This document shows, piece by piece, positions 10,801 to 64,000 of a stretch of DNA of 64,000 bases. The notes beneath the pieces are model-generated. The model saw nothing but the letters and a program-made list of their open reading frames with translations, was not told the DNA's origin and searched no databases. Numbering within the stretch: position 1 is the first letter of the stretch; each line of letters starts with the position of its first letter. Where the stretch lies: contig CM035350.1 of NCBI GenBank assembly GCA_020137815.1, positions 1,054,001 to 1,118,000 of the forward strand, read 5' to 3'. A program made the translations under genes and the position numbers. The DNA is from Hormiphora californensis (lineage: Eukaryota > Animalia > Ctenophora).

Positions 10801-12120
10801 GGCGCCAAATGGAGCCGGCTGGGAGCTAGGCGGGGCGCCAAATGGAGTTGGCTGGGAGCTGGGAGGGGCGCCAAATGGAGGTGGCTGGGAGCTAGGAGGG
10901 GCGCCAAATGGAGCCGGCTGGGAAGTAGGAGGGGCGCCAAATGGAGCTGGCTGGGAGCTAGGAGGGGCTCCAAATGGAGCCGGCTGGGAGCTAGGAGGGG
11001 CGCCAAATGGAGCTGGCTGGGAGCTAGGAGGGGCGCCAAATGGAGCTGGCTGGGAGCTGGGAGGGGCGCCAAATGGAGCCGGCTGGGAGCTAGGAGGGGC
11101 TCCAAATGGAGCTGGCTGGGAGCTGGGAGGGGCGCCAAATGGAGCTGGTTGGGAGCTAGGAGGGGCGCCAAATGGAGGCGGCTGGGAGCTAGGAGGGGCG
11201 CCAAATGGAGCCGGCTGGGAGCTAGGAGGGGCGCCAAATGGAGCTGGCTGGGAGCTAGGAGGGGCGCCGAATGGAGCCGGCTGGGAGCTAGGAGGGGCAC
11301 CAAATGGAGCCGGCTGGGAGCTAGGAGGGGCGCCAAATGGAGCCGGCTGGGAGCTGGGAGGGGCGCCAAATGGAGCCGGCTGGGAGCTGGGAGGGGCGCC
11401 AAATGGAGCCGGCTGGGAGCTAGGAGGGGCGCCAAATGGAGGTGGCTGGGAGCTAGGAGGGGCGCCAAATGGAGCCGGCTGGGAGCTAGGAGGGGCACCA
11501 AATGGAGGTGGCTGGGAGCTAGGAGGGGCGCCAAATGGAGCCGGCTGGGAAGTTGGGGCTCCAAAAGGTGGACTAGGTTGTGAAGGAGCTCCAAAAGGGG
11601 GTTGAGAGGAGGGCGGTTGAGGGCTCTGGTTTGATCGAGGAGATGGTGAACCATTAGAGTTGTCGAAAGGAGATGGTTTAGCAAGACCTCCGAAGGGAGA
11701 GGCACCTGGAGGTGGAGCACCAAATGGAGCCCCAGATTTAGGTGGGAAGGGAGATCCACTGGGGGTCGATGTAACAGGAGGGACGAATGGAGCACCGTTA
11801 GACTTGTCAGATAATGAAACACCCTGCATTTGGGCAGTGGGAGGTCCCCCAAAGGGAGGCCTCATACCAGATGGGGGTGGACCAGGCGGGGCTCCTCCGA
11901 AACTGGGAGGGGGCTTTCCATTAAATGATGGAGGCGGTCCATTAAAAGATGGAGGCGGTCCGTTAAAAGATGGAGGCGGTCCATTGAAAGATGGAGGCGG
12001 TCCATTGAAAGATGGAGGCGGTCCGTTGAAAGATGGAGGGGGTCCGGGAGGCCTCATACCAGGAGCTTTAGCACCAGGGGCAGGCCCCATGGTGGGAGGT
12101 CCAGAAAACTGGGTACTCAT
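4831..12120 (-). CDS. SEC24C: COPII coat protein SEC24C/D, multi-exon
   Basis: Pro-rich N-terminus, zinc finger RCRRCKAYINP...CNLC, vWA trunk (IFCIDVS, GKILVFHSGLP), beta-sandwich (LRMRTSNGLRP), helical domain (GQLILPETLKLLPLY) and gelsolin-like C-terminus (FLVEDK...YTDFLCSIHKEIR). A few single-base indels near 10100-10250. Confidence 0.93.
6258..6330. repeat. 23-bp tandem repeat in SEC24 intron
   Basis: GAGATGGGGTTAGTGGGTGATGG repeated about 3 times. Confidence 0.8.
8120..8558 (+). CDS. C2H2 zinc-finger protein, huckebein-like (EGR/KLF-related fingers), nested antisense in a SEC24 intron; 5' exons unresolved
   Basis: Exons 8120-8239 and 8433-8558 (AG/GT flanked) join to CSYPNCNKTFGRNEEKTRHEKIHLGLKPYQCNK|CYKKFGRKDHLKQHDRTH, ending in TGA. 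Confidence 0.8.
10556..11570 (-). repeat. 33-bp coding minisatellite in SEC24 (APFGAPPSSQP, about 30 copies)
   Basis: Highly homogeneous unit such as GGCTGGGAGCTAGGAGGGGCGCCAAATGGAGCC on the plus strand; a second 21-bp repeat (GPPPSFN) lies at about 11915-12040. Confidence 0.95.
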
Positions 12121-12886
12121 TAAAGCATTACCTAAACACGTGGGCGTGTTAGAGAGAAAATAGTGATGTATCCAAAAGTGGCAAAAAAATAACAATTTCT
12201 AACTAAATGGAAAATGAGAAACTAAAATGTCAACAGAAATATTGATTGAGAAGGAAGTAGAGCCTCAGGCAAAGACTCTTCTCAGGGGGCACATGCATTT
12301 TGTGTAAACATGGAGCCAAAATTAGAGCTTATTGCTAGCAAAAGGGCTGACGTGGTAGGCTCAAAAGAGCGCAAAGTTATCTCCCGACGGACCGATCCTT
12401 GGATTAAAAACGCGCAGAAAACGAACTGCGCAGTACACATGGCAGCGCAATCGTAATTTTACCGCAGAATACGGCCTCCACTCAACCAATGAGATCGGAT
12501 CGGCACCACCAGCCAGCTCAATCAATGAATTTAGTTTAGACGTGAAACAACGGGGTTTTGGTTTATTCAAAATGTTACACAAGTAAGGTGTACACGCTAA
12601 AATGCCGCGAGAAGAAAAAACGACTAGTTCAGCAACTACATCAGGCCAGTGATGTACAAACATATAGTACGGCACATGGGAAGAACCTTAGTGACATTGT
12701 GTGACAAGAAAGGTACAAAGCGATATAGCTATAACAACACCCTATTATATAATAATATTGGCCTACAAACTTCTGGTTCAGCGAGTAAATAACTCAGTTA
12801 CTTTATCTTAATTGTGTCTGTTGTATGTACCCTTACCCAAACAGCACACAGAATAAGTTACTAGATTATTCAGCATTTCTCTCTCT

Positions 12887-16495: not shown

Positions 16496-17993
16496 CATTC
16501 GTAAACATTCGTAAACATTCGTAAATAAATTTAGTATTGTACACAAAGCTTTAGCTCAAAAGGAGCCAACACTCAGATGACATGGAAAGTCAGCAGGTTA
16601 TATGTATCAGCCAAATGACAATGAAAAGCAAAACACATTTCTATGATTCGCCCATCTCTTTAAACACACTGGGGTCATTTCTCCAATCAATCAAGGAGTT
16701 ACTGTGCTCCACCCGGTAACCGCGGACAGGTGGCTGGTCGGGGATGGTGGTTAAGTAGGACCCAAGGGACTGTTTCAACTCGAGCAGTGATGTTGCCTCT
16801 CTCACTGCACGGGGTAGGGAATTCCACAACTGTGCTCCTCTAACACCGAATGATGAGTCATAAGGGCCAGATATGGATTTTTGAGCGAGGTAATTGTAAC
16901 GGGGGACCAATGCTCTGGTACCAAGACGGGTGTGCTCAGTAAACAGGAGACCCGTGCCGTTTGGAACTACATCATGAAGAACCTTCCAGACATGGATAAT
17001 CATGTATCGCTCACGACGCCGCTGGAGGGACAAGATACCAAGATGTTGGAGCCGATCCCAGTACCCCATACCGGAACAGCTCTCAATCCTACGTGTGAAG
17101 TGTCTTTGAGCCTCTTCAACCAGGGCGATATCAGACTTTTTCACCGGGCTCCATAATGGACAACAGTACTCCACCTGAGGCCTAATGATGGACTTCAGTA
17201 ACGTTAGCATAGTATCATCGGATCTATCCCGAAATACACTAAGTGCCCAGCCACTCATGCGTCTAGCCTTGGCAGTAATGCTGCCTATGTGTTCTGACCA
17301 AGTGCAGTCTGCAGATACAAGGACCCCTAGATCTCTCACAGTGAAACTTGGTGATATTGAGTCGCCTCCGGGACCATTGTAAAGATAATTGTCAGTGGAG
17401 AAAGGAAGCTCCCTCAGGAGTTGGGTGGAGCGAAGTGTATAATTTATCACCTCAAACTTATCCTGATGGAGTGACATATTGTTGTCTGAAGCCCAACGTC
17501 CAAATTCATTAAGACTCAGCTGCAGGTTATCTCTGTCGTTGAGTGACCTGATCGCTTTCCACAGCTTGGATTCATCTGCAAAAGTTAGGACTGTTCCCGC
17601 AAGAAGTGATTCAATGTCTATCATATAAACCAAGAACAGAAGCGGGCCAAGAACAGTGCCCTGGGGGACTCCACTAATGACGAGTTCCGGCCGAGACTGA
17701 ACTCCATCCACCACTACTGTCTGTATTCTAGCTGAAAGAAAGTCACTTATCCAGCGGAGAAGTCTTCCACGTATACCATACTTCTCAAGCTTGCCCAATA
17801 AAACTTTAATATCGACTTTATCGAACGCCTTCTCCATATCCAAATAAACAACATCCACTTCCAGACCGTTATTCAGTTCACGCATGATGTTGTCATAGTG
17901 GTTCAAAAGTTGGGTCAGACAACTCCTATTTCTCCGAAAGCCGTGCTGACCATGGGATGTGAGGGCAACAGGGCGATAGTTTTTAGCCTCCAT
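16496..17993 (-). mobile_element. 5'-truncated, inactive CR1/L2-type non-LTR retrotransposon (RT ORF 16641..17993)
   Basis: Motifs YRPVALTS, QHGFR, YLDMEKAFDKV, GVPQGTVLGPLLF and LWNSLP. Catalytic FADD reads FADE, and the usual spacer between YRPxxL and QHGFR is deleted. A 3' tandem tail (TTTACGAATG)x3 lies at about 16496-16525. Confidence 0.9.
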
Positions 17994-18107
17994 CTTTGAA
18001 CCCTAACGCTAAAATAGGAATTGAGATTTTGCCGCTATTTTGCCCCATCTATATTATAATTTTTTTTTTTTTTTTTTTTGGAAAAACAATTAAAAATATA
18101 TACACAA

Positions 18108-18931: not shown

Positions 18932-19175
18932 GGCCAGCGTTAAAATCTGGGTGTTTGGTGAGTGCTGTCATACGGTTTTTTAGAGTTAGGGCTAAAGTAA
19001 GGTTAGGGTTTGGGTTGGAGTTAGGCCTTGACATTTCCTACCAGATAAACGTTGAATTAGCCAATACGGTTGAGTGGTTTGGCGGTTAGAGCCATTTTAC
19101 TTTTTAGTGAATCAACTTTTTAGGAAACGCGCACCTGTAAACAGGCCTCCAAACACCCAGATTGTAACGGCGCCT
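18932..19175. mobile_element. MULE-like MITE with 9-bp TSD and internal TTAGGG-like repeats
   Basis: TIRs CGTTAAAATCTGGGTGTTTGG / CCAAACACCCAGATTGTAACG; TACACTACA duplicated at 18923-18931 and 19176-19184. Related copies at about 19923-20190 and 49453-49585. Confidence 0.8.
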
Positions 19176-19408
19176 TACACTACATGATCCTTGCTGAATG
19201 CTGTGGGCGTACGCCGTACATGCACGACTCGAGGGTAGTAAAAAAGGTTAAAAAAGTGCAATGGCACTAAACAAACTCAAAATAAAAGCGACGCGCAGCA
19301 ACTAGTTGTTTTGTTTCAGCGGCCGGGCCTCATAATTTATCAGTTTTCCGTTTATGCTCGTTTTTGGTTTTTCCGTTGAAAAGCGCTGCCTTATCCCGCG
19401 CGCCTATA

Positions 19409-20297
19409 AGGAACCATAATAAAGTTCAAGAGCCTCCAAGAGCACCCAAGAGCACACCCGATCGAAGAGAGACCACACCTGAGAGCGTACCACACCCAAA
19501 AGAGACCACATCCAAGAGCGCACCACCTCCAGAAGACACCACTTCAAGAGCGCACCACATCAAAGAGAGCTCCCCATCCAGAAGATACCACGCGCAGGGG
19601 ACACCACGCGCAGAAGAGACCAGCGCGGCGTTGTATTTGCGCGTGCGGTCTCTTCTGCGCGTGGTGTCCCCTTAGTGGAAGCTCTTACGGTATTTCCCAC
19701 GCCCCGTGGGAAAGTTTTCGACCGTGGGAAAGTTTTCAAAGCGTGGGAAAAGAGAGATACATACAATAACTAAGAAAAAACAATTTATTTTTTATAGTTA
19801 TTGTATGTATCTCTCTTTTCCCACGGTTCGAAAACTTTCCCACGGTCAAAAACTTTCCCACGGGGCGTGGGAATTACCGTAAGAGCTTCCACTACCTGCG
19901 CGCGGTATCTTCTGGATGGGGAGGGCGCGATTATAATCTGGGTGCCTTGGAGCCTGTTTACAGGTGCGCGCTACCAAAAGAGTACACTTAGACCGACTTT
20001 TTTCAAACGGCTATAGCCACGCAACCACATGGCCAATTTGAGTAAACTAAACGGCATCTGTTAGAGAATCGATAGCCCTAACCGATAACCCCAAACCAAA
20101 CCCTAACCAGACCCTAACGGATAGCCCTAACCCGTCGCGCGCGCTAAAACTACGAATTGTTAGCAATGAAAGGCACCCAGATTTTAACGTTTTCCGGATG
20201 GGGAGCTCTCTTTGATGTGGTGCGCTCTTGAAGTGGTGTCTTTTGGAGGTGGTGCGCTCTTGGATGGGGTGCGCTCTTGAACTTTATTATGGTTCCT
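19409..20297. mobile_element. Composite TA-flanked TIR element containing nested foldbacks
   Basis: TIR AGGAACCATAATAAAGTTCAAGAGC at both ends and AAGAGCGCACCAC-type subterminal repeats. Contains a hairpin (19596-19672), a MITE (19675-19892) and a MULE-like MITE (about 19923-20190). Confidence 0.75.
19675..19892. mobile_element. Near-perfect foldback MITE, TA TSD
   Basis: GTGGAAGCTCTTACGGTA...TACCGTAAGAGCTTCCAC with arms of about 100 bp and repeated CGTGGGAAA motifs. Confidence 0.85.
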
Positions 20298-20476
20298 TAT
20301 CGGGGCTAGCAACGTTTTATTTGCCAAGTTTTTCCGCCGTCTCACAAGACGCAAAAAAAACGATATGAACCCCGGCACCGGGTACACTATGAGTCTCTTG
20401 ATATCACTGTCTTTTTATGAACGATCAAATCTTTAGGTGCATGTAATTGGAAAAGTTAAAATTATATTGAATTTAG

Positions 20477-36568: not shown

Positions 36569-36933
36569 TTTATTGTTTTATAGTTGGAGGATTTATTTGT
36601 GAACGGGTTTGCTAAATAAAGTGCGATTTTTAATAATGCGAACCGGGGGCGCGCATTAATAATAACATAATTCCATTTGCGCGTGCTAAATCCGGTTCCT
36701 GATAAGATAGAGACTTTTCATTAGTCGCATTAGAAAGATACAGTTTTTTTCTTTTCAACGCACCCAGGATCAAGTCTTTATCTTATCAGGAGCCAGAGAT
36801 ATGATCAAAACAACCGACAAAAAACTTTCCCACGGTGCGTGGGAATTTTTTGCGGTTCGCTTTATTAAAAATCGGACTTTATTTATGTTTTAATCTCCCG
36901 ATATACCTCTAACCTCTACCCCCGTAATTAGCG

Positions 36934-37312: not shown

Positions 37313-39903
37313 AGCTATCTCTTCATTTCTATCTCAATTTCTCTCTCTCTCTATCTCTTCATTTCTATCTCAATTTCTCTGTCGTCTTTGTCTATTTTCT
37401 ACTCTATATGGGGATCTCATCACGCACAGTGGACTGCTGGGTGAAATGTGGGATCTGATAACCACTAGGATGATCTGATACTCAGTGGGGTGATCTGATC
37501 CTGGGTGGGGTGATCTGATCCTCAATGGGATGATCTGATCTTGGGTGGGGGGATCTGATCCTCAGTAGGGTGATCTGATCATGCATGTTGGGTGATGTGA
37601 TCTGATCTTGATGACGACGATTTAGGGACCACCAAACATGCATGGGTGGGATCAAGTTTCGGGTGTTTTTGCATTATATAGTAAGACTAGCGCACCCATT
37701 GGATGCGCCTCAAGTAGCTTTTTGATTACCCACCCGGCTTCGCCGGGTGGTTCTTTTCGCCCTTTCAACGTCAATAACACGGTTGCCATGGCAACTGGAG
37801 TGGTAACTATGGGGACTGAATTATTAAAATTCATTCGAAAATATTAACAAACTTCCACTGGAAGTTCCAAAAGTGTGAACAGCAGCTTTACAGCTTTGGT
37901 CATATGAAGTGTTTTATGAAGGAGCAGCCTGTCGCTTAGATACCGCCTAACGAACGACCACCACTTCGACGACGTTCATCTCCAAATTATAATAGAGATA
38001 CTATTGTTTAACACCCCTTCACCCTATGCTAATGTTATACCATGCCAACACCTCTCACCCCCTGTAGGTAACTGGAGACAGGTTGTCCAACGGAGTGGCT
38101 ACAGTTGCTGTTGACTCTGCCAGCCCCATTGTACACCTGGGCGTCTACCTGGGACTGGGAACTCGACACGAGACCAAGGCCACTGCTGGCATGCTCCAGG
38201 TCATGAAACATGCCTGGTTGGGCACCACTACCAGGCGAACACTAGTTGGTGGAGCTAGGGAGCCCGTCCAGTGTGGAGCTAACATTGTATTTACCCCTGG
38301 TAGGGATGTTACTTCTATCACCGCATCCTGCCCCCGGGACAAGGCTGACCTGTGAGTAACATAAATCACAAAATAAGTTATCAGTTATGAGTTACCACCT
38401 AACCACTAATCGTTAGTTACAACTGGCTCCAACTACCCGGTAACTGCACGCACATCTCTAGTTACTAACTATTGTGTTTCAGTGTGCTCGACCACATGGT
38501 ACAGAACCTGATCTGTCCAGAGTTTTTCAACCACGAGCTGCACACCCCCATCGCTAGAGCTGCACAGACCTCTGCTGTAGAGCTGGCAAACCCTCTTAAC
38601 CGCATGCTCGATACGGCTCACCAGGTAGGTCAATTAATGGATCTAGAGGTGTAGGTCGTCTGTACATATAATTGTGAAACCAACCGACAATGTAGGTTGC
38701 AGTTGTCTGTTCTTTCTAAGTTCAGCCAACAAATCTCCCCTCCACAGTTGGCATATCGAGGAACTGGACTTGGCCGATCTCTCTACTACGCAGGAAACTC
38801 TGGTCTGGACAGGGATGCCTGTCTTGACTTTGCTCTGGAGAACTTCAGGGATTCTAATAACATTGCAGTTGTTGGTGTAGGTATGTAACCCGGTAACATC
38901 CCCAGATCACTGCATCTCTCTCCTTTCTCTCTCATTTCCCCATATTACTCATCTTCCAGGCTGTAACGGTCTTTCTTTCACCCAGGATTTGATGCTGATA
39001 CAGTTAACGTGTTGGCTGATGAGTTCCTGTGGTCTCTAGAAGGAGGTTCTGTCTCTAGCGCTCCATCCACCTGGACCGGAATGAGGGACGCACACATTGA
39101 GGCACCCGGAGCTGGGGGCCGTGCCCTATTCCTGAGTGAAGGAGCCCCCATTGGCAGTAAGGATGCCCTAACTCTGGACCTTATTGGGTACCTAGTGGGA
39201 GGAAGTGCAGCACCCAGTGTAGCTCATGGTGCTGTCCAGACCAAACTAGCTGCAGCAGTTGGGGCTGTAGCTGGAGGTCCCTTCACTTCAGAGACTGTCA
39301 ACATCAGTTATAGGGACTCTGGAATGTTCGGCCTCTCTGTATCAGCAGCTAACGGAGCTGAGGTAACAAAGATATGTTTTCATACCACTAATCTATTAAC
39401 TGCACTTCTATCTAACACATCTAACCACTCTCTGTTCCCCTGAATCCACATCTATATCTAACATCTCTGTTCCCCCTAGCTCGGTGATGTGTTGAAGTGC
39501 TCTATTGGTGTCGTCAGGGGAGTTAGTCAGGGTGTATCTGATGAGGATCTACAGGGTGCTAAGAACCGACTCAAACTATCTGTCCTTAATGAGGTACCTC
39601 TCCATCTCCTTTCTTTCCTTCTTCTCTACTCCTTTTCTACTCCAAGATGTCCCCCACTATTTAACCATTCTAACACTCCTCCCTCCCATCTAGCGATCCA
39701 GCGTGTCTGGTGTTCTGAACGGTACAGCAACTGAAGCCCTTGCTGGGGGAGCTGCACGATCAGCGGGAGATATCTGCGCTGCTATTGATGCTCTTACTGC
39801 TGAAGATGTCATTGCTGTGGCTAAAAAGGTTGCCACATCTCAGCCGGTCCTGGTTACCTACGGATCTGCTGAAGATATGCCCCTTCAAAGAGAACTCATC
39901 TAA
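36934..39903 (+). CDS. UQCRC2: Cytochrome b-c1 complex core protein 2 / M16 peptidase-like, mitochondrial
   Basis: LSNGVATVAVDSASPIVHLGVY..GTRHE, NISYRDSGMFG, DLQGAKNRLK and IDALTAEDVIAVAKK...YGSAEDMP; no HXXEH motif seen. Confidence 0.82.
37470..37610. repeat. About 21-bp tandem repeat (GGGTGATCTGATC core) in UQCRC2 intron 1, after a CT microsatellite
   Basis: Repeated GATCTGATC units seen directly. Confidence 0.8.
37687..37998 (-). mobile_element. Non-autonomous Helitron, second copy
   Basis: Reverse-complement homologue of 18108-18416 with the same TC/CTAG termini and terminal hairpin. Confidence 0.85.
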
Positions 39904-49452: not shown

Positions 49453-50263
49453 GGCCAGCGTTAAAATCGTGAGTGCTGACAAACGGTTTTCCAGGGTTAG
49501 GGCTAAAGTAGGGTTGGGGTTTGGGTTGGGGTTAGCGCACTGCGCACCAGTAAACAGGCCACCAAACACCCAGATCGTAACGGTGAACCCAGTAGGGATC
49601 CCTAAAAAAGTTCAGTATTTACACAGAGTTTACACAGTCTTTACTCAGTCGTTACACCCAGAGCGGCGCGTGCTGCGCACAGTGGCTTTTTCGAAGAAAA
49701 TATTGGATTGTGTGCTGCACAATTGACAAAATTGAGCGCTGCGGCGAAAAAAGTTTCCGAAAACGCTGCAAATCGAGTGCGAAAGACGCAGTCGTTACAC
49801 CCAGAGCGGCGCGGGCGCTCTGGGTGTAACGACTGAGTAAAGACTGTGTAAACTCTGTGTAAATACTGAACTTTTTTAGGGATCCCTAAAGTCGGATTTT
49901 TTGAAACTGTCACCCCCCTGAAATAACAAAATTTGCCATATCTCCGGTTCCTGATAAGATAGAGACTTGAAATTTGGAGGTTCGGAAGAACTTAGCAAGA
50001 TCTTCGTAACCTCCAAATTTCAAGTCTCTATCTCTTCAGGAACCGGATTTATGGCCATTTACAAAATTTGAAAATACCCAGGGGGGTGACAGTTTCAAAA
50101 AATCCGACTTTATGAGGCCCCTCGGAAATGTTCAAGTCATGCACAATCAAGTCACGCCCACCAATCACAGCTCAGAACGCGCGGAGTGCTTCGCGCGTTC
50201 TGCGCTGTGATTGGTGGGCCTGACTTGATTGTGCATGACTTGAACATTTCCGAGGGGCCTCAT
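49453..50263. mobile_element. Chain of abutting MITEs/foldbacks
   Basis: MULE-like MITE 49453-49585, then palindromic elements 49595-49886, 49889-50110 and 50112-50263 joined at TA dinucleotides. Confidence 0.85.
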
Positions 50264-50879: not shown

Positions 50880-51057
50880 ATTTGGGCAGGTCGGTAGAAC
50901 TTCGACAGAATTTAGGGCAGGTCAATTTAGGGCAGATCTGAATTTAGGCCAGGTCTGAGTTTAGACTTTAGGGCAGGTCTGAATTTAGGGCAGGCCGCAG
51001 GTCTGAATTTAGGGCATGTAAATTTAGGGCAGGTCTGAATTTAGGGCAGGTCTGAAT
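50880..51057. repeat. About 17-bp tandem repeat (GAATTTAGGGCAGGTCT)
   Basis: Multiple degenerate copies seen directly. Confidence 0.85.
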
Positions 51058-51798: not shown

Positions 51799-54700
51799 AT
51801 GGCTCGTGTATTTATCAACAATGTGGACAGTTATCTTGGGGAGCAGGTTGCAGAGGTAGGAAACACATAATATTTGGATTATTACATATCAATTGGCACA
51901 AGTCAATGTTCAGATTTGCCTAGCTAGACTATGTTTCGCGCACCCCGCCCTCGAAACAAAAGGAGGGTTATAACAAGTTCAGATATGATTAAACGAGATC
52001 ATTGTCCAAGAATAGAATCTAACATTCCCAATTCACCAGATATTCGCAAACACGGTGGTTGGCTCCACTGTCGAGGAGGCGATAGATGACGACGAAGGAT
52101 CTGCCCGGGCTCAGGTCCGTTATGAAGTAGTGGGTACAGTTTCCTGCCCCAGTGCAGTGCCCTGTGCAGCAGTCAGTGAGGTTGTAACAGCTGCTAATGC
52201 TGATGAGATGCTTGTGGCACTGATGCAGTGTGATATTATCGTGTACGATATCACTGGGGATGAACAGCAGGTGGAGAACTGTCTCATCGCGTGCAATGGT
52301 GAGTGGAAAACTGCTGTGCGATACCGGTTCATACCGGGACTTTTATTGTTTGGATCACTTCGGCAAATAAAACCTAATCACCCGCTATATTTCAGCCCTA
52401 CACGAGCAGATTGCCAACTTCAAGACACCCAAGACCTTCATCTGTCTCTCAAGTGTTATGACATGGTGCAAAACTAAGCCCAACGAGCCTGTAAGTAACT
52501 TATACGACTTTTCAAAATCACATTTGAATTCTTAGCAGTTAGCACTGTTCAATCCAGCATTTTACCATTCAAATCCAAAACTTCTTCATTTTCTCACCCA
52601 TCTAGCAGAACATATAAACTACCTTTCTTTAACCCTGTGTAATTCCTTGTAGGCAATAGAGGTATAAAATAACACGCCGCGGGGTAACTCATTGAATTGT
52701 GTAGCGTGCTAGTTGGCAGTGCAGTGTAATTGTGCAATGTGACTGTGATTTGATGTCGGAGGGAACAATGAAATTGAAAACTAATCTATTAGACGCTAAC
52801 ATCGCTAGCTGCAGAACACAAGTTTTATGGTTTGTTTTGTTTGATTGATCTATATTCCATCAGGATGAGCCTGAGCAACCATTTACGGAGGAAGATTATA
52901 GGAGAAGGAAGTCCCATCCCAACTTCAAATCTGAAATCAAGTAAATAAACTCCCCTTACTGTCTCCTTGCTGTTAACCCCTCCCCTGCTAATGGAGGTCA
53001 GATTGCAAGTTAATGTTCGTTCCTCATTTCAGCGTTGAAAAACAAGTGATAAAGTTGGGAAAGACGGTAAGGAATGCGCGATGACACATCTCTGTCCAAT
53101 AGCAACAGATCTCGCGCGCTGTTACTGGGGGCAACGAGTGCGCGCAAACAGTACACAGTTTTAGCACTGACAAGGGACTGAAGTTCTCTATCTCACATTC
53201 TGTTATTTCCAGGACAAGACTCGGTTCCTCACTTATGTGGTGGCTGCTGGTCTGCCCTATGGAGGCAAGGAGGACATCTTCCACTATTTCTTCAAGGTGC
53301 GTGCTAAACAATATCTACCAAACTGTGAGTCACACTGACAGTGTTGGGCACGTCGCCGGTCGCGCCTGTCAGAGCATTGGCCTGACAGCGTCGCGCTATC
53401 CCCTGTACTTCGTCTCAGACGAAGTTGGCAGCTTCGCTGCCAACTTACAGTGTGGCGGGCAGAAAGCAATATGTTTTTCGTTGTACTCTGCTATACCCCA
53501 ACCCCTCCTCCCTCAGGTTGCCTGGCATGGTGAGTCTGCCGCCCTGAATATTATTGGGACGGGAGAGAACATTGTACCTACCATCCACGCCAAGGATCTC
53601 AGCAACATAGTGGTGTCTGTAGCTGACTCAAAACCCAAAACAAGATACATCTTGGCTGTTGATGATTCCATGAACTCTATGACTGATATCATCACGGTAT
53701 GTAGCATGGTGTTAGGGAATGCTGGGGGTAGTTAGTAAGAGATACATGGCCTAATTTACTATTCACCCCACAGTCGATCAGTAAGAGCCTGGGAACAGGA
53801 AATGTAATGAACATTAGCCGAGAGGAGGCCCTCCTTCTCCCCGAGATCACTCAGAGAATATTCGATATTATCTCTGTGAATCTCAGAATGGAGGGAACTT
53901 GGATCAAAGAGGGTGCCAAATTTGAATGGACTTCAGAGGTAATATAAATTGTCCCGCACTGGGCCTTTCAAACGTGTTGTTTGACCCCCCCAGAACTCCG
54001 TTACAACTAACATGGTCCATCCCTATAGACTGGAATTATCGAGAACATGCCAGCAGTAATTGACGAGTACAAGAGATCCAGGGGTCTCCTCCCCATTAGG
54101 ATTTGTGTACTGGGACCCCCTGCCTCTGGGAAGTCCCTGGTTGCATCCCAACTGTGTCAACACTACAAACTACACCACCTGAAAATAGCTGATGTTATCC
54201 ATGAAGCCATCGAGAAACTGGTATGTGCTAGACATTACGTCATGACATGGGAAGTGCCAACAATGTTGGTTCTACTTCTAGACTGAAGGCTCTACGACTG
54301 ATCAATAGCACCACTTTTATTTATTAATTTATTTATTAATTTATTTTATTTATTAATTTATTTTATTTTATTTAATTTTAATTAATTTTATTTATTTTGT
54401 TTATTAATTTATTAATTTATTAATTTATTTTATTTATTAATTTATTTTATTTATTAATTTATTTTATTTATTAATGGGGGGGGACATGTTAATTTTGTTA
54501 ACTTTGTTAATATTAACATCGAGAAAACAGGTGATTTATTAACAAAATTAACAAAAAGTTAACAAACGTTAACAAAGGCCATTTATGCCATCTAAATCCC
54601 CTTTAGCACGTATTTTTGGTATTTAACACTTGTTCTGCGAGCAAAGTTGTTCCTTCTGCACGATTTACATACCACTACTACCTCGACTACGGCTTTTCTA

Positions 54701-56680
54701 CAGCGATTTGTTCCATTGTGTAAATTTTAATAAAACTAGCCAAACTAAACCGCAATTGTAGTCAAATGACCCTAATCCACATTTTCCAAGCCTAAAAACT
54801 ACATAAGACTCATGAATTTACCTTAAAACGAAAAATAACCCAAAAATATATTTTTCTAAAAAAACACAAGGATTTGTAGCGAAGCAAATTTTCAATCTTT
54901 GACAAAAAATTGATTTTGGAAAAATATTTTTTCTTTTTCCAACAGAAACGTTGCATATCATCTTATTAAGTCCAAAGAATCAATTACAAATGAAAAAATT
55001 ACGTTAAAATATGATTTTATACGCTAAATTGAAATATTTGTAACTTTTGGATTTTTATCGATTTTGAGCCAAAAAACCTGTATGTTGGACTTTTGTTATC
55101 GGAAAAGGCCTTGATTGGGTATATATGTGTTAGGTAAGTCATTAAACTATAAAATTAAACCAGTTAAAGTCGTATTATCAACCAATAAGAACAGTCTTTT
55201 AGCATTTGTTAACTTTGTTAATTTTGTTAATTAACGTTAATTAACAAAATCGAAAAAAAGAGGTGATTTATTAACAATTAACATGTCCCCCCCCCCCTTA
55301 TTAATTTATTTATTTATTAATATGATCGTTCCAAGTTTCAACGTCTATCATTACTACAGGAGAAACAGGCGTCCAGGGCCGAGGCAGAGGATGGAGAAGA
55401 AGGGGACGATGAGGCGGCCCAACAGGCACAGGAAACACTGGACTTACTGAACGAGAGCAAACAAGAAAACAACGGTTAGTAGTGAAGTACACAACTTGCC
55501 AACTATCGGACCCTGATTGTAAGAGGATCACTTTTTCAACAACATACCCCTCTCCAGATCGATATGAGGATCAGTATATCATCCAGTTCTTTACTGAGAA
55601 GCTGCTCTCCATGCCGTGCCAGAACCAGGGATTTGTACTGGATGGGTTCCCCAAGACGTACAGCCAGGCCAAAGACATGTTCGGGAACAAGGAAGAGCCT
55701 GAGGACGAGGATGCCCCTAAGTTGGAATACAACACTAAACTCATGCCTGGTAATTATAGGAATTGTATTCTTTAGATCTCAGTGCAATTTCATCTATCAC
55801 GGGATTGTGTGTTTACTGTTGTCTGTTTGCTTCTGCCAATATGACCAAGTAACCCCTTCCCCGCACAGAGGCTGTTATTTCCCTGGATGGAGATGATGAA
55901 TTCATCAAGAAGCGAGTAATGAACCTTCCTGAGTTAGTGGTGGCGGGGACACACAATACAGAGGAGCTCTTCCTGAAGAGACTAACTGAAGTTCAGGATG
56001 GTCAATACAGATGATCAGACGGTGCTAAACTATTTCGATGAGCTGGAGGTTCACCCTGAACACCTCGATATCACAGCTGATACATCCTCCAACATGTCAC
56101 AGGTACTAGGATGGTGTTGGTGTGAAATGTTGTCTACAGATTATCATGTACGCAGTTCAATCTGCAACAGTGCAACGCGTGTTATTTGATCTAATCTCGC
56201 CCCTAGGTTGTCCAAAGGTGGTGAAGGTAGTTGGTGCTCCCCGAAACTACGGACCCACTGAAGAAGAGAGATTAGAGCTGGAGAGAATCGAGATGGAGAA
56301 GAGAATGAAGAAGGAGGCCCAGGAAAAGTTGGAGTTGCAGAGGAAGGAGGAAGAAGAGAAGAAGGAGACGAAGAGGAGGAAGGATGAGTGGGCCTCCAGG
56401 GTGAAAGAAGTGAAGGAACAAGAAGAGGAGGTCCTTCAGGCACAGAGTTACCCTCTCAGGAACTACCTAATGAAACATGTCATGCCAACACTTAACCAGG
56501 GTCTTATTGAGGTGTGCAAGGTCCGACCTGAGGATGCCATCGACTATCTGGTGAGTGGGGGAGAAAATACATTTCCAAATTGCTGCCATTATCCAAACAA
56601 TAGATTTCGAATAAAGTCACTAACAAGACCATTATTTTCAGGCTGAGTACCTATTTGAGCACAACCCCCAAGTGGACTGA
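51799..56680 (+). CDS. AK7: Adenylate kinase 7 (ciliary)
   Basis: [17 protein letters not shown]-binding-like start, [54 protein letters not shown] and the Dpy-30 motif [38 protein letters not shown]. Confidence 0.95.
54476..55297. mobile_element. AT-rich non-autonomous DNA transposon in AK7 intron
   Basis: TIR (G)nACATGTTAATT / AATTAACATGT(C)n; TTATTAAT on both flanks is a possible 8-bp TSD, though it sits in low-complexity AT sequence. Confidence 0.75.
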
Positions 56681-57394
56681 AGTGTTTCGGAGCGACATGA
56701 GCATCTTGTGATGTCAACTGGGGAGGGGGATGTTGAGGGTTCTGGTGAAGTGATCTGTCATCTGGCTGGTATTACAACAGGAGATGTGAAACCACCACAA
56801 CCTCCCTTCTTTTTCCTTCCCTACCATCGGACTACCAAAGGACTCAGGTGGTCCTGGGTCTGATTCAGGACCACCAAAATATAATTCCCGATAAAACAAT
56901 CGTGTTGCTCTGGAAATGAAATGTTTCCCTGTATAAATCTCAACGAACTCTAGACGCTGTGTATAGCTCTTTTTTCAGTGATCTTAAACCATGGTTTCAG
57001 TCACACAGTGTGTTTTAATTTGCACAATATCTCAAATAGCCAGCAGGTGCTTCACCAGTCAAACCTCGTGACATTGGACCCAGATCCAGATTCTCTACTC
57101 CCCCGCTTACCACCTCTCCTGCCGTTGTGGGTACAGTGCTGCGCGGCTCACTTTCTACAAGTGTGAGTAGCCGCGCGCTCCAACCCACTCCACCAACAAT
57201 CTGTGACAGGAGCGGGGCGCACTTGTTGCTTCATATTGTACGTGTCAGAAAGGCGTTGTTTTTTGCTTTGATAAAATAATAATTCTTAATACAATACATA
57301 CAATAAATAGAGAGGTCTGTACAAAAAACTTATAAACACTGTTTACAAAAGTGTCTTTGTCTCTAAACAAGTCACGCGGAAGTCTTTGAGAGTT

Positions 57395-60300
57395 CTATTG
57401 TTTAAAAATTCTGGCAATTCGTTGTCTCTGGTCCTGGGAGGGTCCTTGTAGCATGAGGCTGGTTAGAGGTGTCCGTCTTGAGAGGGCAGCGGGCGGGGCT
57501 CCTGCTGAGCTAGGTCTGGAGAGAGAGGGTGTGTTAAGGGCGGGAATGTGTAATATTGAGGGATAATAACTAAGGGATATGTAATTGACGTGTCATTACC
57601 CTGCTCTGTCTTCTCCGGAGAGTGTAGGTTGCCTCCGTATAGATGTGAGGGTGGAGGATAGCTCTCTAGCGGCAGAGAAGAAATCTGGCGTCACTGAAAA
57701 CAGAGGGAGATGTAAAGGGATGACATAACTAGTTGGCAAAGTGCCCGAAGGGGCGTGGGTTATTATACGCAATATGGTGCTGTAGAGCTGTTGACAACAA
57801 CAAACACTTCTGTCGTGGAAAGGACAATAAAATATAAGGTGAATGAACTCAATGAACGCTGTTTTATTACAGTTACCTGGGGTAGGACGGCCAGGGAATC
57901 TGGAGAGTGGTCTCTCTCCTGGTAGGTATTGTGGTGGGACAGCTGGTTCACTAGGAACTGAGGCAGCAGGCTCATTAGGATATGCAGCAGGTTGAGATTG
58001 TGATGGCTCGCTGGGTTTTACAGCAGTATCTCCAGTAATTGTTGGTCCACTAGAGGATGGTTTGGAACTGGTAGTAGTACTACCAGAACTAGTAGTGGTT
58101 GTTTTACTGCTCCTGGTGGCCGTACTGCTAGATGTTGTAGTGCTGGAGTGTGTTCCAGTGGAACTAGCTACACTGGGCTGTTCCAGTTGTTCCAACTGTT
58201 CCAGTTGCTGCTCTTGACTCTGTTTTTGGTTCTGTTCAGAGTTATGTTCCTGTTCCAGATGTTCATGTATCCCAATACTCTCTGTTGAGGGACACTGAAT
58301 AGCACATTCCTGCATCGTGGGCCCTGCTATCTCAGCTAGAATAGTATCTTCATCACACCCCACACCCTCATCAACACCTTCAGTTACTGCTCCTTCATCA
58401 AAACATTCATCTGCTCCTTCATCAATATCTTCATCTGCTCCTTCATCAACATTACCAATGTCACCAACATCCAGTCTCTCTGTACTTCCAATCTCAGTAC
58501 TGTTCAGGAGCTGATCAATGTGCTGTGTCTGCCTGTGAACGTTCTCCAGAAGTGATGCAATATCACTAACAGTCTCGGAGAGACACTCTGTATCAACAGT
58601 AATATCAAATGTATCTAACATAGGGCACACATCATCTTCTTCAGATTCTTCATTCTCAGTAGGGGGCGAGGGAATGGGCAGGTGAGTAGAACTTCGCTCC
58701 TAATAAAAGGCTGCAATAAAAGGCTGCAGAAAAAGGCTGCAGAAAAAGGCTGCAGTAAAAGGCTGCAGAAAAAGGCTGCAGAAAAAGGCTGCAGTAAAAG
58801 GCTGCAGTAAAAGGCTGCAGTAAAAGGCTGCAGTAAAAGGCTGCAAGGGATCACGTATCCAACCAGACTAAAGCGTGGGATAGACCGAATCGTCCTCCCC
58901 TAATAGTGTTTCGTATCACGTATCGGCTGTAGAGAGACCGAATCACCCGTTTCACGTATCCAACTAGACCATAGGCGATAGAGAGACCGAGATAGAGAGC
59001 GAGTACGAGTGAGAACTGAGAGAGTGAAAAATCAGAATCACGGTATGGTATCACGTACCATGGTATCCTCTAATGAAAAGCGGTTACCAATTGACAATGA
59101 GACCTCATCGATCCCGATACGTGATTCTCTACCGCTATCCCACCGCTATGTATTCTCCATTAGTCTTTCCGTATCGATCCACGATTCAGTAGAGGTAGTC
59201 AGTAACTACTGAGAGTGTTGGTCTAATGAGGTAGAAAACGGCCGAAATCTCGAGTTCGCTTTTTGTGATTTTAGCACTAGAGTCCGCTTATCGATCTATT
59301 GATTGAGCGTGTAGCACAATGATTGGTAACGCAGTTCCCCCTACATTGCGGGCACGCTAAAACGTGCCTTACTATCGCAATGCCCTATGTAGGCAGAGGG
59401 GTAACTTCGTTACCAAGCACAATGAGTGCTACACGCACTCACAATATGACAGGTGAACCACCCAACCACTTGGTTCACCTATCATAGTTTCTACCTCATT
59501 AGACCAACACTCTCAGTAGTTACTGACTACCTCTACTGAATCGTGGATCGATACGGAAAGACTAATGGAGAATATATAGCGGTGGGATAGCGGTAGAGAA
59601 TCACGTATCGGGACCGATGAGGTCTCATTGTCAATTGGTAACCGCTTTTCATTAGAGGATACCATGGTACGTGATACCATACCGTGATTCTGATTTTTCA
59701 CTCTCTCAGTTCTCACTCGTACTCGCTCTCTATCTCGGTCTCTCTATCGCCTATGGTCTAGTTGGATACGTGAAACGAATCACTATAATTAGGGGAGGGT
59801 GATTCGGTCTCTTTACAGCCGATACGTGATACGAAACACTATTAGGGGAGGACGATTCGGTCTATCCCACGCTTTAGTCTGGTTGGATACGTGATCCCTT
59901 GCAGCCTTTTACTGCAGCCTTTTACTGCAGCCTTTTACTGCAGCCTTTTACTGCAGCCTTTTTCTGCAGCCTTTTTCTGCAGCCTTTTTCTGCAGCCTTT
60001 TACTGCAGCCTTTTTCTGCAGCCTTTTTCTGCAGCCTTTTATTGCAGCCTTTTATTAGGAGCGAAGTTCTACTCACCTGCCAGGGAATGATCTCAGTGAG
60101 TGAGGGAATGATCTCACCAGGAGAGACTGATAACTTCTCAACAACTTCTTCAACAGGTGTCTCCTCCACAGCAGGTGGTTCCTCCTCTCTAGTATCTCCC
60201 GTGGTAGTATCTCCCTTCTGTCCAATACTCTCCTCTCTGGTATCACCCAAGGTATCTCCCTTCTGTCCAATACTCCTGATCATCCCCTCCACCTGGTTAA

Positions 60301-62133
60301 GAGACTGGAATACTGATCTAATATCACACTGCTCGGGCTGGTCACGTTGTGTCGCTACAGCGGGTGGTGCTGGAACCTTCCTGTGTAGAAAGTTGGTTGT
60401 CTCTGGAACATCAGGTGTGGAAGTTGGGCAGTTTGCCAGGTCCCTAATCCGTTCCTTATTGACAACTTCCAGGGGTGTAAATGCTACTTTGATCTGCCCA
60501 AATGTGTCTTTGCTATACACATCCTGGATCAGATACCAACCCTCTATGGAAGGGAATCCCAGGAAGAGGGGAGCTAGGTCTACTGTAGCTGTACCAATAA
60601 CCTCTCCTTCATCCCCGACCCCACACCCCCACACCACAAGAGAGAGGGTGTTAGATGAGGAGAGGAACAGAGGGTAGGGTAGTTTCATATCTCTTGCCAG
60701 GTTGATCTGTACAGAGGGGGAGTGCTGGTAGTTGGGTGTTGTAAGGAGGGTGTTGTGACGGTGTCTCAAGGTGCAGTAAACAGAGTCGTAGAGAGGTAGA
60801 CCGGTACAGTGGGAGATAGCAACACGGAACATTACTCCTTCTGGCTCCTGGGGAATAGAATGGACGTTATGAAAACACCCTAACTTAAGTTAGGGTGTTT
60901 TCATAACGTCCCCAATTGAAACACTTTTAGTATAAGTATCAAAAGTGACAGGATGGTTGGAGACCACTAAATGACATACCTCTTCCACAACATCCTCCTC
61001 CACCTCTACATCAGGTAGTTCACTCAGCACTGTGATCTCCTTCTCTTCATCCTCGGGTAACTGGTCTAGTGTTGCCAGGGTAGTGGAAACGTGCAGTCCA
61101 GCACCTCCCAGACCGGCACAGTTAGCCTTCACTAGGGGTACCACCTGATTGGGGGGGGGGGATATAAGCTAACTGTTGTATCAAATTGTATCAAAATAAA
61201 TGCAGATCTGAGTGCTGAATATACATTCCCAGTTGGCAGACAGAGGGGGACAGAGGGGGACAGAGGGTATCTCTCTACCGCCTATAAATTGAGATCTCTT
61301 ACCTCAGCGGAAGAGACGGGGAAGTGATTTGAGAAGAGTAGAGAGGAGATATTTACATATCCGCATCCCAGTATTGTATCTCCAACAGTATCCCCTGAGG
61401 TATCTCCCCGAGGCAACAACCACACCTGAGAAGACAAGATTTAGCTGAAAGATGAATAATAATTCAAAACTAGAGCTGGTGTAATCTCTAATATGAAAGA
61501 GGGTCTGATCAACTCTAATCAGAAAAGTGTGCAGCAAATGTGTACTTTATGGGTGCGTGATACACCCAAAGGGGGAATGTTGAGAGACTGCGTTTCCTAC
61601 TTTTCACGAAAGGGCCTCCAAGACACTCCACCACATCATTATATTGCCCCTTTGCTATTATGTTGTGGTTCTTGTTCTCTCTCACCACCCTCCTAAGGAG
61701 TGTCCTAGGAGAGTGTGAATCAGCAGAACAGAGATTAGCCGCCCCCTATCTCCAAACATCCACTGGCTCTCAGATGCCTGCTACAACTTGGGAAACAGGC
61801 GATAGTTATAGTTTGAGCTGCAAGAGTACCTCCGACCAGAAACACAGGACATGGACTAACAATATCAGGAGAATTGCAGCAGTGGATGCAACACTCATAG
61901 ATTAGTGAGTTTTGTTTGAGATATAAGATTTCATCCTTGATGGGGTGACTTGAGATTAGTGAGTTATCACCCACACCTGGTTTTCACAGACTGACCTGTT
62001 GTTTTTGTGTGATGTTCTATCTAAAACTATTCCAATTACCCAGTGTTGATACAGATGGAGAACAGTCAGAGGAGATCTTTGTGAAGTGTAGTGGGGGAAC
62101 TTTCAAGCCTGATATCTTCAAAGACCAGGACAC
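57395..62133 (-). CDS. C2CD3: C2 domain-containing protein 3 (centriolar), 3' part; 5' exons beyond the right edge
   Basis: C2 domain with IGTATVDLAPLFLGFPSIEGWYLIQD...GQIKVAFTP and C-terminal RIARIF, both typical of C2CD3; interrupted by the element at 58677-60081. Confidence 0.75.
58677..60081. mobile_element. 1405-bp foldback (MULE/FB-like) non-autonomous transposon with 8-bp TSD, inserted in a C2CD3 coding exon
   Basis: Inverted arms of about 560-590 bp start GGCAGGTGAGTAGAACTTCGCTCCTAATAAAAGG and carry 13-bp subterminal repeats (A/T)AAAAGGCTGCAG. AGGGAATG is duplicated at 58669-58676 and 60082-60089. Confidence 0.92.
60862..60911. repeat. Perfect 50-bp palindrome in a C2CD3 intron
   Basis: GGACGTTATGAAAACACCCTAACTT|AAGTTAGGGTGTTTTCATAACGTCC. 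Confidence 0.95.
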
Positions 62134-62500: not shown

Positions 62501-63856
62501 TTATACAAATTAAAAACAACAGCAGTTTTTAAGGTCTATACACATGTTTCATGGTGCCCCACGAGGAGGCACCAATCATCAGTAGACAAAGATCAAAATG
62601 AGAATGAATTGGGATAAAGTATGACTCCTTCATAAAAACAGTCAGTCGAACGTTCCTATTTAGAATTAGTAGCTCCATTTCACGTCACATCTTTGTATCT
62701 TGGACCTCTAGATTCCCCAGTTTCAAAGTACGTCAACCATTTCCCTTTCTTGGAGTGTGTAATCTGTATTCCATTTTGATCATTGTTCCTCAAAACCAGA
62801 CGTCGTACGTGTCCTCAGATCCACAAGAGAGCTCAACCACAAATAAATTGAGGGAGCATTGCATTATAGCGAGTTTAGTAGATTGATGACAAGATAGATA
62901 TCCTGTCCCTTGGTCCGAGATCAACAGAGAGCTCTAGCACGGGGTTAGCCGGCGAGCAGTTTATACAAATTAAAAACAACAGCAGTTTTTAAGGTCTATA
63001 CACATGTTTCATGGTGCCCCACGAGGAGGCACCAATCATCAGTAGACAAAGATCAAAATGAGAATGAATTGGGATAAAGTATGACTCCTTCATAAAAACA
63101 GTCAGTCGAACGTTCCTATTTAGAATTAGTAGCTCCATTTCACGTCACATCTTTGTATCTTGGACCTCTAGATTCCCCAGTTTCAAAGTACGTCAACCAT
63201 TTCCCTTTCTTGGAGTGTGTAATCTGTATTCCATTTTGATCATTGTTCCTCAAAACCAGACGTCGTACGTGTCCTCAGATCCACAAGAGAGCTCAACCAC
63301 AAATAAATTGAGGGAGCATTGCATTATAGCGAGTTTAGTAGATTGATGACAAGATAGATATCCTGTCCCTTGGTCCGAGATCAACAGAGAGCTCTAGCAC
63401 GGGGTTAGCCGGCGAGCAGTTTATACAAATTAAAAACAACAGCAGTTTTTAAGGTCTATACACATGTTTCATGGTGCCCCACGAGGAGGCACCAATCATC
63501 AGTAGACAAAGATCAAAATGAGAATGAATTGGGATAAAGTATGACTCCTTCATAAAAACAGTCAGTCGAACGTTCCTATTTAGAATTAGTAGCTCCATTT
63601 CACGTCACATCTTTGTATCTTGGACCTCTAGATTCCCCAGTTTCAAAGTACGTCAACCATTTCCCTTTCTTGGAGTGTGTAATCTGTATTCCATTTTGAT
63701 CATTGTTCCTCAAAACCAGACGTCGTACGTGTCCTCAGATCCACAAGAGAGCTCAACCACAAATAAATTGAGGGAGCATTGCATTATAGCGAGTTTAGTA
63801 GATTGATGACAAGATAGATATCCTGTCCCTTGGTCCGAGATCAACAGAGAGCTCTA
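62501..63856. repeat. 460-bp tandem repeat, about 2.95 copies
   Basis: Units start TTATACAAATTAAAAACAAC at 62501, 62961 and 63421 and look identical by eye; the third is cut at a TA by a palindrome. Confidence 0.95.
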
Positions 63857-63970
63857 TCTCCAACCGGTTAGCCGTTATTTGGCTTAAACGATGCTCAAAA
63901 TGAGCGAAAAACGGTAAAAAGCCCGATTTTGAGCATCGTTTAAGCCAAATAACGGTTAAACGGTTGGAGA
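63857..63970. mobile_element. TA-flanked foldback MITE
   Basis: TCTCCAACCG...CCGTTATTTGGCTTAAACGATGCTCAAAAT pairs with ATTTTGAGCATCGTTTAAGCCAAATAACGG...CGGTTGGAGA. Confidence 0.8.
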
Positions 63971-64000
63971 TACAGCTTAAAAGTCCGATGTCGACCCCCC

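Follow-up and report, generated by a model that had tools for sequence, protein, structure and literature searches.

In a 64,000-nt stretch of Hormiphora californensis DNA (contig CM035350.1, positions 1,054,001 to 1,118,000; called the window below), a coding exon of C2CD3 is interrupted by a segregating insertion of a foldback DNA transposon that belongs to an abundant, high-copy family. The reading that we adopt, with modest confidence, is that this non-autonomous insertion is likely of Merlin type and recent, and that its allele yields mostly truncated or decayed mRNA, in-frame splicing being a minor product at most. The anatomy of the DNA and its polymorphism were observed directly, and from them we infer every step at the level of RNA.

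The preliminary description of this DNA had called the element a foldback transposon with symmetric terminal inverted repeats (TIRs), and the TIRs, an 8-nt target-site duplication (TSD) and near-identical arms were indeed all found. The parts of the element and its surroundings are as follows (no strand assigned):

58677..60081, non-autonomous foldback TIR DNA transposon, recognised by its TIRs, its TSD, and, in DNA runs, its high depth and numerous flanks
58669..58676, left TSD copy, 8 nt
60082..60089, right TSD copy, 8 nt
58704..58845, left 13-nt subterminal array, with 11 CAG acceptor-like sites on the transcript (58711-58841), all predicted to truncate the protein here
58846..59237, inner left arm, paired with 59488-59899 (arm alignment and predicted fold)
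59238..59487, central spacer (loop), 250 nt
59900..60054, right 13-nt subterminal array, with two AATAAA hexamers on the transcript strand, starting at 60056 and 60043
60090..60110, 21-nt repeat unit (SLTEIIP) adjoining the right TSD and missing from the second haplotype

The element is 1,405 nt long, has GG termini and contains no transposase ORF, its longest stop-free stretch in the six frames being 76 codons. Its first 44 nt are the same at both ends. The two arms measure 561 and 594 nt; their alignment has 558 matches, with 3 mismatches and 33 gap columns, and the 250-nt spacer lies between them, while the subterminal arrays hold 10.9 and 11.9 units of 13 nt. The 8-nt TSD reads AGGGAATG, as seen at this one site only. 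The element is more than a chance arrangement of letters. The view of the subterminal array as a tandem series of acceptor-like sites also held, 11 CAGs being counted on the transcript strand.

The abundance of the family was apparent from the DNA runs X1, X2, and X5, in which the depth over the terminal TIR was ~600-960 times that of a single haplotype, a rough figure that does not translate into a copy number. Contigs from these runs and from organism B (X9), with low agreement, leave the TIR terminus into many different flanks. Loose ends at 58716 and 60042 in X1, X2, and X5 (1-2 contigs per run) correspond to internally deleted derivatives of ~75 nt; these are intron-sized and asymmetric, and are the best place to seek real introners. 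The 64-kb window is a small sample of the family and contained no other full copy or scar: a TIR 16-mer allowing up to 3 mismatches had 3 matches there, namely the two ends of the element and one end of a sister family. Collections of metagenome, viral, and prokaryote sequences contained no match to a TIR 20-mer. A relaxed 18-mer matched at least 120 loci, none with a partner end or an array and the best at 21/22 nt, and these were treated as chance.

The termini and the TSD make the element a likely Merlin. The criteria given for this superfamily in the text of PMC8101967 are 5'-GG termini and a TSD of 8 or 9 nt, and the same text reports Merlin ORFs in three ctenophore genomes. As described there, Merlin elements share with ours the 5'-GG termini, the 8-nt TSD, long TIRs, and internal tandem repeats, but the arms of the C2CD3 element (~560 nt) are longer than the 24-462 bp quoted for Merlin. 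Six motifs had 0 matches within the first 400 characters of each sequence row in S2 Appendix of PMC8101967. Unlike Merlin, the C2CD3 element has no transposase, and its link to DDE_Tnp_IS1595 is thus only presumed. TSDs of 8-9 nt are also made by hAT, P, and MULE/Foldback elements.

Several other repeats were noted in the window. A further foldback element, at 19115-20306, has a 222-nt palindrome at its centre and subterminal arrays of 16-17 nt. Three adjacent palindromic MITE-like elements occupy 49593-50263, one of them similar to 36687-36803, and a 1.1-kb AK7 intron (54221-55359) contains an AT-rich element with inverted ends at 54535-54572 and 55199-55234. Upstream of the modelled C2CD3 exons, the segment 62501-63977 holds a tandem repeat of 460 nt (2.9 copies, 100% match) and, adjoining it, a 128-nt palindrome (63850-63977), and is probably another element. 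The segment 18107-18417 is repeated in inverted orientation at 37686-37999. On the minus strand, we observed a reverse-transcriptase (PF00078) fragment of a non-LTR-type element at 16644-18002 and, at 10126-12198, a proline-rich frame of 691 codons built on a 33-nt unit in 30 copies, with no Pfam match.

The gene that is interrupted is identified from its sequence as C2CD3, a centriole gene, and the modelled exons are:

57877..60847, minus strand, long C2CD3 coding exon with the insertion (last C2 domain and acidic linker), boundaries by eye and open frame
57395..57693, minus strand, two last C2CD3 exons (57693-57600 and 57515-57395), ending RIARIF, boundaries by eye and open frame

The part of the interrupted frame upstream of the insertion had 72 protein matches; ten were looked up, of which eight were named C2CD3 and two were unnamed. 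The modelled last exon ends with RIARIF, to be compared with the C-terminal RIA(K/R)IF of all six full-length C2CD3 proteins compared. Removal of the element with one TSD gave a stop-to-stop minus-strand frame of 626 codons, reading ...EIIP|SPPTENEE across the site, which bears out the earlier claim that the element lies in a C2CD3 coding exon whose frame is otherwise continuous. In 6/6 close unnamed homologs, the two blocks flanking the insertion are in one ORF; the relatives have no intron at the point of this coding exon where the element has landed, a feature looked for in introners. Pfam returned no family for the 262-aa upstream piece and only sub-cutoff low-complexity matches downstream, and Rfam had 0 matches across 57000-62000. 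For eIF2B-alpha, encoded nearby, the identity was 74% with a cluster that includes Bolinopsis and Mnemiopsis proteins and ~50% with other animals, which points to a ctenophore host.

The linker between the conserved blocks measures 78 aa here, vs 96, 135, 138, and 138 aa in the four of six close homologs that matched the pattern used for the measurement (two did not). We also compared the window with the second haplotype and at least one other sample. Among the exon differences listed (exon rows only, from 40/80 and 40/100 rows), 16/19 were synonymous (10/12 upstream and 6/7 downstream of the insertion), and the C2CD3 exon is under purifying selection. The presence of both blocks in one ORF in the homologs, the spread of linker lengths and the synonymous excess therefore argue that the element is inserted in working coding sequence, within a linker that tolerates changes in length. 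Because linker length varies among relatives, the linker could probably accommodate 12 additional aa. An intronic or pseudogene nature of the region was rejected, since synonymous differences prevail both upstream and downstream of the insertion. By the same count, the insertion haplotype shows no signs of decay, which fits a young null and a functional allele alike. Among haplotypes, the C2CD3 linker is strongly length-polymorphic at 60090-60250 and 58185-58250, with skips of 103 and 64 nt and the 21-nt unit. A perfect 50-nt palindrome (60862-60911) in a 130-nt C2CD3 intron is also polymorphic, being replaced by 17-20 different letters in other haplotypes (X1, X2, and X5 joints).

An empty site had been proposed as a comparison, and one was provided by sample S1, from which the window may derive. 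This sample carries two haplotypes with 22 differences over 385 nt, present at equal depth on the same 385 nt (58.8/55.4 in X2 and 34.1/34.1 in X1), and the second of them is without the element. A 530-nt X2 contig matches 58270-58676 and its next 117 letters are not those of the element, and an X1 contig starting from 60098 carries 72 loose letters, the last 30 of which match 58634-58663 at 28/30. The 21-nt unit beside the element is missing from the second haplotype too, which has further differences along the linker and does not represent the precise sequence that the element entered. For these placements, each flank was extended by 52-67 nt of the element. For the filled right junction, we found an X2 contig (60055-60281) with 0 differences and a depth of 50.7, reaching 27 nt into the TIR and thereby falling short of the 31-letter bridging rule; among the pieces listed there was none for the filled left junction. 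Those listed for X5, another sample, showed only other haplotypes at 58454-58499 and 60151-60171. From X14, a possible RNA run, came one contig of 41 nt and none on the TIR, too little to bear on splicing in either direction. Given an element-free second haplotype and a high-copy family with many flanks, we conclude that this is a segregating insertion and not a fixed intron. Such polymorphism is compatible with an active introner.

The candidate splice sites of the element, all on the minus strand, are the following:

60069..60081, minus strand, transcript 5'-side TIR end with the consensus donor CAG|GTGAGT, candidate exon end 60077 (donor score)
58677..58717, minus strand, transcript 3'-side TIR end with a TTTAT branch-like motif, a candidate TAG acceptor ending at 58700 and 23 retained nt (sequence model)
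58700..60076, minus strand, hypothetical 1,377-nt intron (sequence model)

The preliminary description had stated that the TIR begins with a perfect donor, that splicing from TIR to TIR would leave 36 nt, or 12 stop-free codons, and that the arrangement would be the same in either orientation since both signals are inside the inverted repeat. All of this was reproduced in the sequence. CAG|GTGAGT scored 10.6, above all 15 native donors (2.4-8.9), and its joining at 60077/60076 to the TAG at 58700 would add 36 nt reading IIPWQERSSTHLPIPSPPT; the GAG at 58697, adjoining this TAG, is also in frame. The further statement that the scheme would work in any phase barring stops held for the 28-nt TIR scar itself, stop-free in 3/3 phases, and nearly everywhere in the exon, where simulated scar insertions created a stop at 8 of 1,488 positions and none at 1,480. 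With a 15-nt matrix, the TAG scored 6.1, a value that the best array CAGs also reach and that falls in the native range of 2.6-14.2; it is preceded at 18 nt by the branch-like motif TTTAT (YTNAY), the native mode being 18-20. When the terminal 60 nt were shuffled (n=20,000), 0.25% of the shuffles yielded a donor this strong, and 0.4% gave a donor of median or better score together with an in-frame, stop-free YAG, a frequency that is uncorrected for the many transposon ends inspected.

A related TIR in the same window served as a control:

50885..51057, plus strand, solo end of a sister TIR family, matching the TIR at 18/20 positions and continuing into a 17-nt array in which GGCAGGT recurs; it lies upstream of AK7 in non-coding DNA

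This control is one end of one relative, and no partner end was found within the window. It keeps CAG|GT, with a score of 5.1, and GGCAGGT is repeated five times in its array, but none of the 5 AGs within 110 nt offers an acceptor that keeps the frame and avoids stops whatever the phase. We infer that GGCAGGT is the terminal and subterminal transposase-binding motif of this clade. As a putative binding motif, it would itself supply CAG|GT, and the TIR donor is then much less surprising.

Native splice sites in the window (15 donors and 18 acceptors of AK7, eIF2B-alpha, and C2CD3) form a small set, in which 11 acceptors and 10 donors were placed by alignment to P0149/P0127 and the remainder, including 7/18 acceptors, by eye. 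The native introns at 51856-56641 are mostly 83-373 nt long, and their CAG is preceded, at 13-20 nt, by a clear YTRAY branch motif. The native acceptors were CAG in 17 cases and TAG in one. None of the 18 had another AG within 13 nt upstream, vs an AG at -11 for the TIR TAG, and a YTRAY motif was present 10-40 nt upstream of 11/18 native acceptors vs 0/13 AGs of the element. Five array CAGs have TTTAC at -20. Among 15 acceptor choices that we modelled, only the TIR TAG and the adjacent GAG kept the RIARIF C-terminus, which would be lost with the other 13 (11 array CAGs and 2 native ones) and with unspliced RNA, in which a stop is reached 45 codons in. Rescue by splicing of the TIR donor to the next native acceptors was rejected, as both lead to an immediate stop. 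The T-tract that makes the TIR acceptor reads AATAAA twice on the 5' arm; no AATAAA was found within 300 nt after the C2CD3 stop.

It had also been suggested that pairing of the arms could bring the splice sites together. The element is predicted to fold at -1240.9 kcal/mol into a stem of more than 550 bp, and in both the MFE and the centroid folds the donor, the pyrimidine tract, and the AG are buried inside one continuous helix, with the splice sites 18 bp apart. The idea that pairing exposes them was therefore rejected; pairing would rather hide them. These folds are equilibrium predictions, and co-transcriptional binding of U1 could come before pairing. The predicted base-pairing of inverted repeats within an exon is what is found in SOS splicing substrates.

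Under the reading that we adopt, a transposase encoded elsewhere would have inserted the element by cut-and-paste, duplicating 8 nt. On transcription, U1 probably binds the strong TIR donor before the far arm is made. The emerging 3' arm would then zip onto the 5' arm and hide the branch point, the pyrimidine tract, and the AG. The RNA may be kept unspliced, with its stop 45 codons in; or the TIR donor may be joined to the next native acceptors or to any of the 11 CAGs of the array, with loss of the conserved C-terminus; or the transcript may be cut at the two AATAAA hexamers of the 5' arm. An intact second haplotype would allow the insertion allele to persist. We count against this reading the strength of the donor, the rarity of the joint arrangement, the score of the TAG, which is within the native range, and the tolerant linker, and, against its AATAAA step, the lack of this hexamer within 300 nt after the C2CD3 stop.

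A true introner, in which the TIR donor and the TIR TAG are the main route and a polymorphic new intron adds 12 codons in either orientation and nearly any phase, is a tentative alternative that we consider unlikely. Branching would take place at the TTTAT at -18, and the CAG 7 nt behind this motif would be too close for use. The donor that surpasses 15/15 natives, the 0.25-0.4% shuffle frequency, the scar free of stops in 3/3 phases and at 1,480/1,488 simulated sites, the tolerance of the linker, and the intron size that ~75-nt derivatives would have all speak for it, as do published precedents. The introners of Aureococcus sp. shown in PMC9860276 (Fig. 2F-G) have both splice sites inside and add 12 bp, 4 from the element and 8 from the TSD. 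The C2CD3 element resembles them, as described in that figure and its text, in its internal candidate sites, 8-nt TSD, and whole codons added; it differs by the 36-nt scar that it would leave, its size of 1.4 kb, its almost fully palindromic structure, and its animal host, and, unlike these validated introns, it is a candidate (PMC9860276). Introns are created in either orientation by classes 2, 3, 6, 7, 8, and 10 of the Polarella glacialis ILEs and likewise by the Aureococcus anophagefferens IEs, according to the text of 10.1101/2020.10.14.339549. Our candidate would share this orientation independence with these elements, and shares the 8-nt TSD with classes 3, 6, 8, and 10 (10.1101/2020.10.14.339549). 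Since introners that leave a scar with an 8-nt TSD and introners that act in either orientation have already been described (PMC9860276; 10.1101/2020.10.14.339549), the proposed mechanism would be a variant and not a new category. The sister (stw)introns of Hypoxylaceae, which are spliced, also have terminal inverted repeats, but these are internally symmetrical, imperfect (~73%) repeats of 45-55 nt with seamless insertion and no TSD, as presented in PMC8469720, unlike the C2CD3 element with its TSD and near-perfect 560-nt arms.

Several observations weigh against the introner. Its acceptor is a TAG that follows 11 CAGs, unlike 17/18 native acceptors, and five of these CAGs have an equally placed TTTAC at -20 and would all truncate the protein. 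Both splice sites are base-paired in the predicted stem, the sister end has no phase-independent in-frame acceptor, the site is not fixed, and the 64-kb window contains no other copy or scar. At 1.4 kb, the element is also larger than introner families tend to be, their medians in PMC9860276 being 30-654 nt. The idea that the family hides its exonic insertions as introns, of which one exonic copy is known, has no direct support; nor is it refuted, given the very strong donor, the TTTAT 18 nt before the TAG, and the length-variable linker.

Another alternative, which we hold to be improbable, is a hairpin-triggered, spliceosome-independent excision of SOS type, imprecise near the ends, in which a minority of products would be in frame, the linker would tolerate the indels, and the GT/AG of the TIRs would be incidental or a back-up. 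Such a route would call for AKAP17A, CAAP1, and RTCB in the host. The text of PMC12779559 describes how exonic insertions of Tc1, Tc3, and Tc4 are removed by SOS splicing, for which ITR pairing is necessary and sufficient and which is efficient yet imprecise and rarely uses GU-AG; GU-AG sites in the ITRs are given as a back-up, and its authors speculate that ITRs may carry spliceosomal sites. Rescue was reported there only in poorly conserved regions. Our case is similar in that an exonic DNA transposon with paired inverted repeats lies in a poorly conserved region, the linker, and its predicted stem is far longer than those studied (PMC12779559). It differs in superfamily and phylum from the Tc1/Tc3/Tc4 cases, whose products are heterogeneous, and SOS splicing was demonstrated only in C. 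elegans and human cells in the account of PMC12779559.

It is very improbable that the allele is silenced at the transcriptional or post-transcriptional level, which would make any route of removal immaterial, through its very long predicted duplex (the 560-bp stem may be diced, edited as dsRNA, or kept in the nucleus, dicing and editing being assumed for Hormiphora californensis), or that the filled allele is an assembly product, for which the 27 nt of TIR in the only listed filled-junction contig (X2) and the lack of a listed left-junction contig could be invoked but against which the precise 8-nt TSD and the haplotype-level depth (50.7) favour a real germ-line insertion.

Introners of animals have been reported in sea urchin and tunicates (PMC12130899, PMC11282704). 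The string 'ctenophor' had 0 occurrences in the main texts of PMC9860276, PMC12130899, and PMC12779559 and in 12/14 supplementary files of PMC12130899; no ctenophore introner was found in the literature searched, and the supplements of PMC9860276 and of the bioRxiv paper may list one.

What we describe is an unusually tidy latent splice design, as far as its letters tell, in a well-defined segregating insertion, and as an intron it is a candidate only. For protists and fungi there is ample documentation of transposon-driven intron gain, which in animals is rare. Should the allele prove a simple null, this is an ordinary heterozygous transposon insertion in a ciliary gene. There is a smaller chance that an active Merlin-like family of ctenophores has a TIR that is a self-contained bidirectional splicing cassette, with the C2CD3 allele as a new intron that is still segregating. 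In that event, splicing would reduce any exonic landing, whatever its orientation and in nearly every phase, to 12 added codons and would not depend on proto-splice sites of the host, this would be the first introner in Ctenophora found by our literature search, and short derivatives would seed introns of ordinary size. A filled and an empty allele in one individual are an ideal pair for telling TIR splicing, SOS-type excision, and loss of function apart, and transcripts from the filled C2CD3 allele could show whether SOS splicing reaches the earliest-branching animals.
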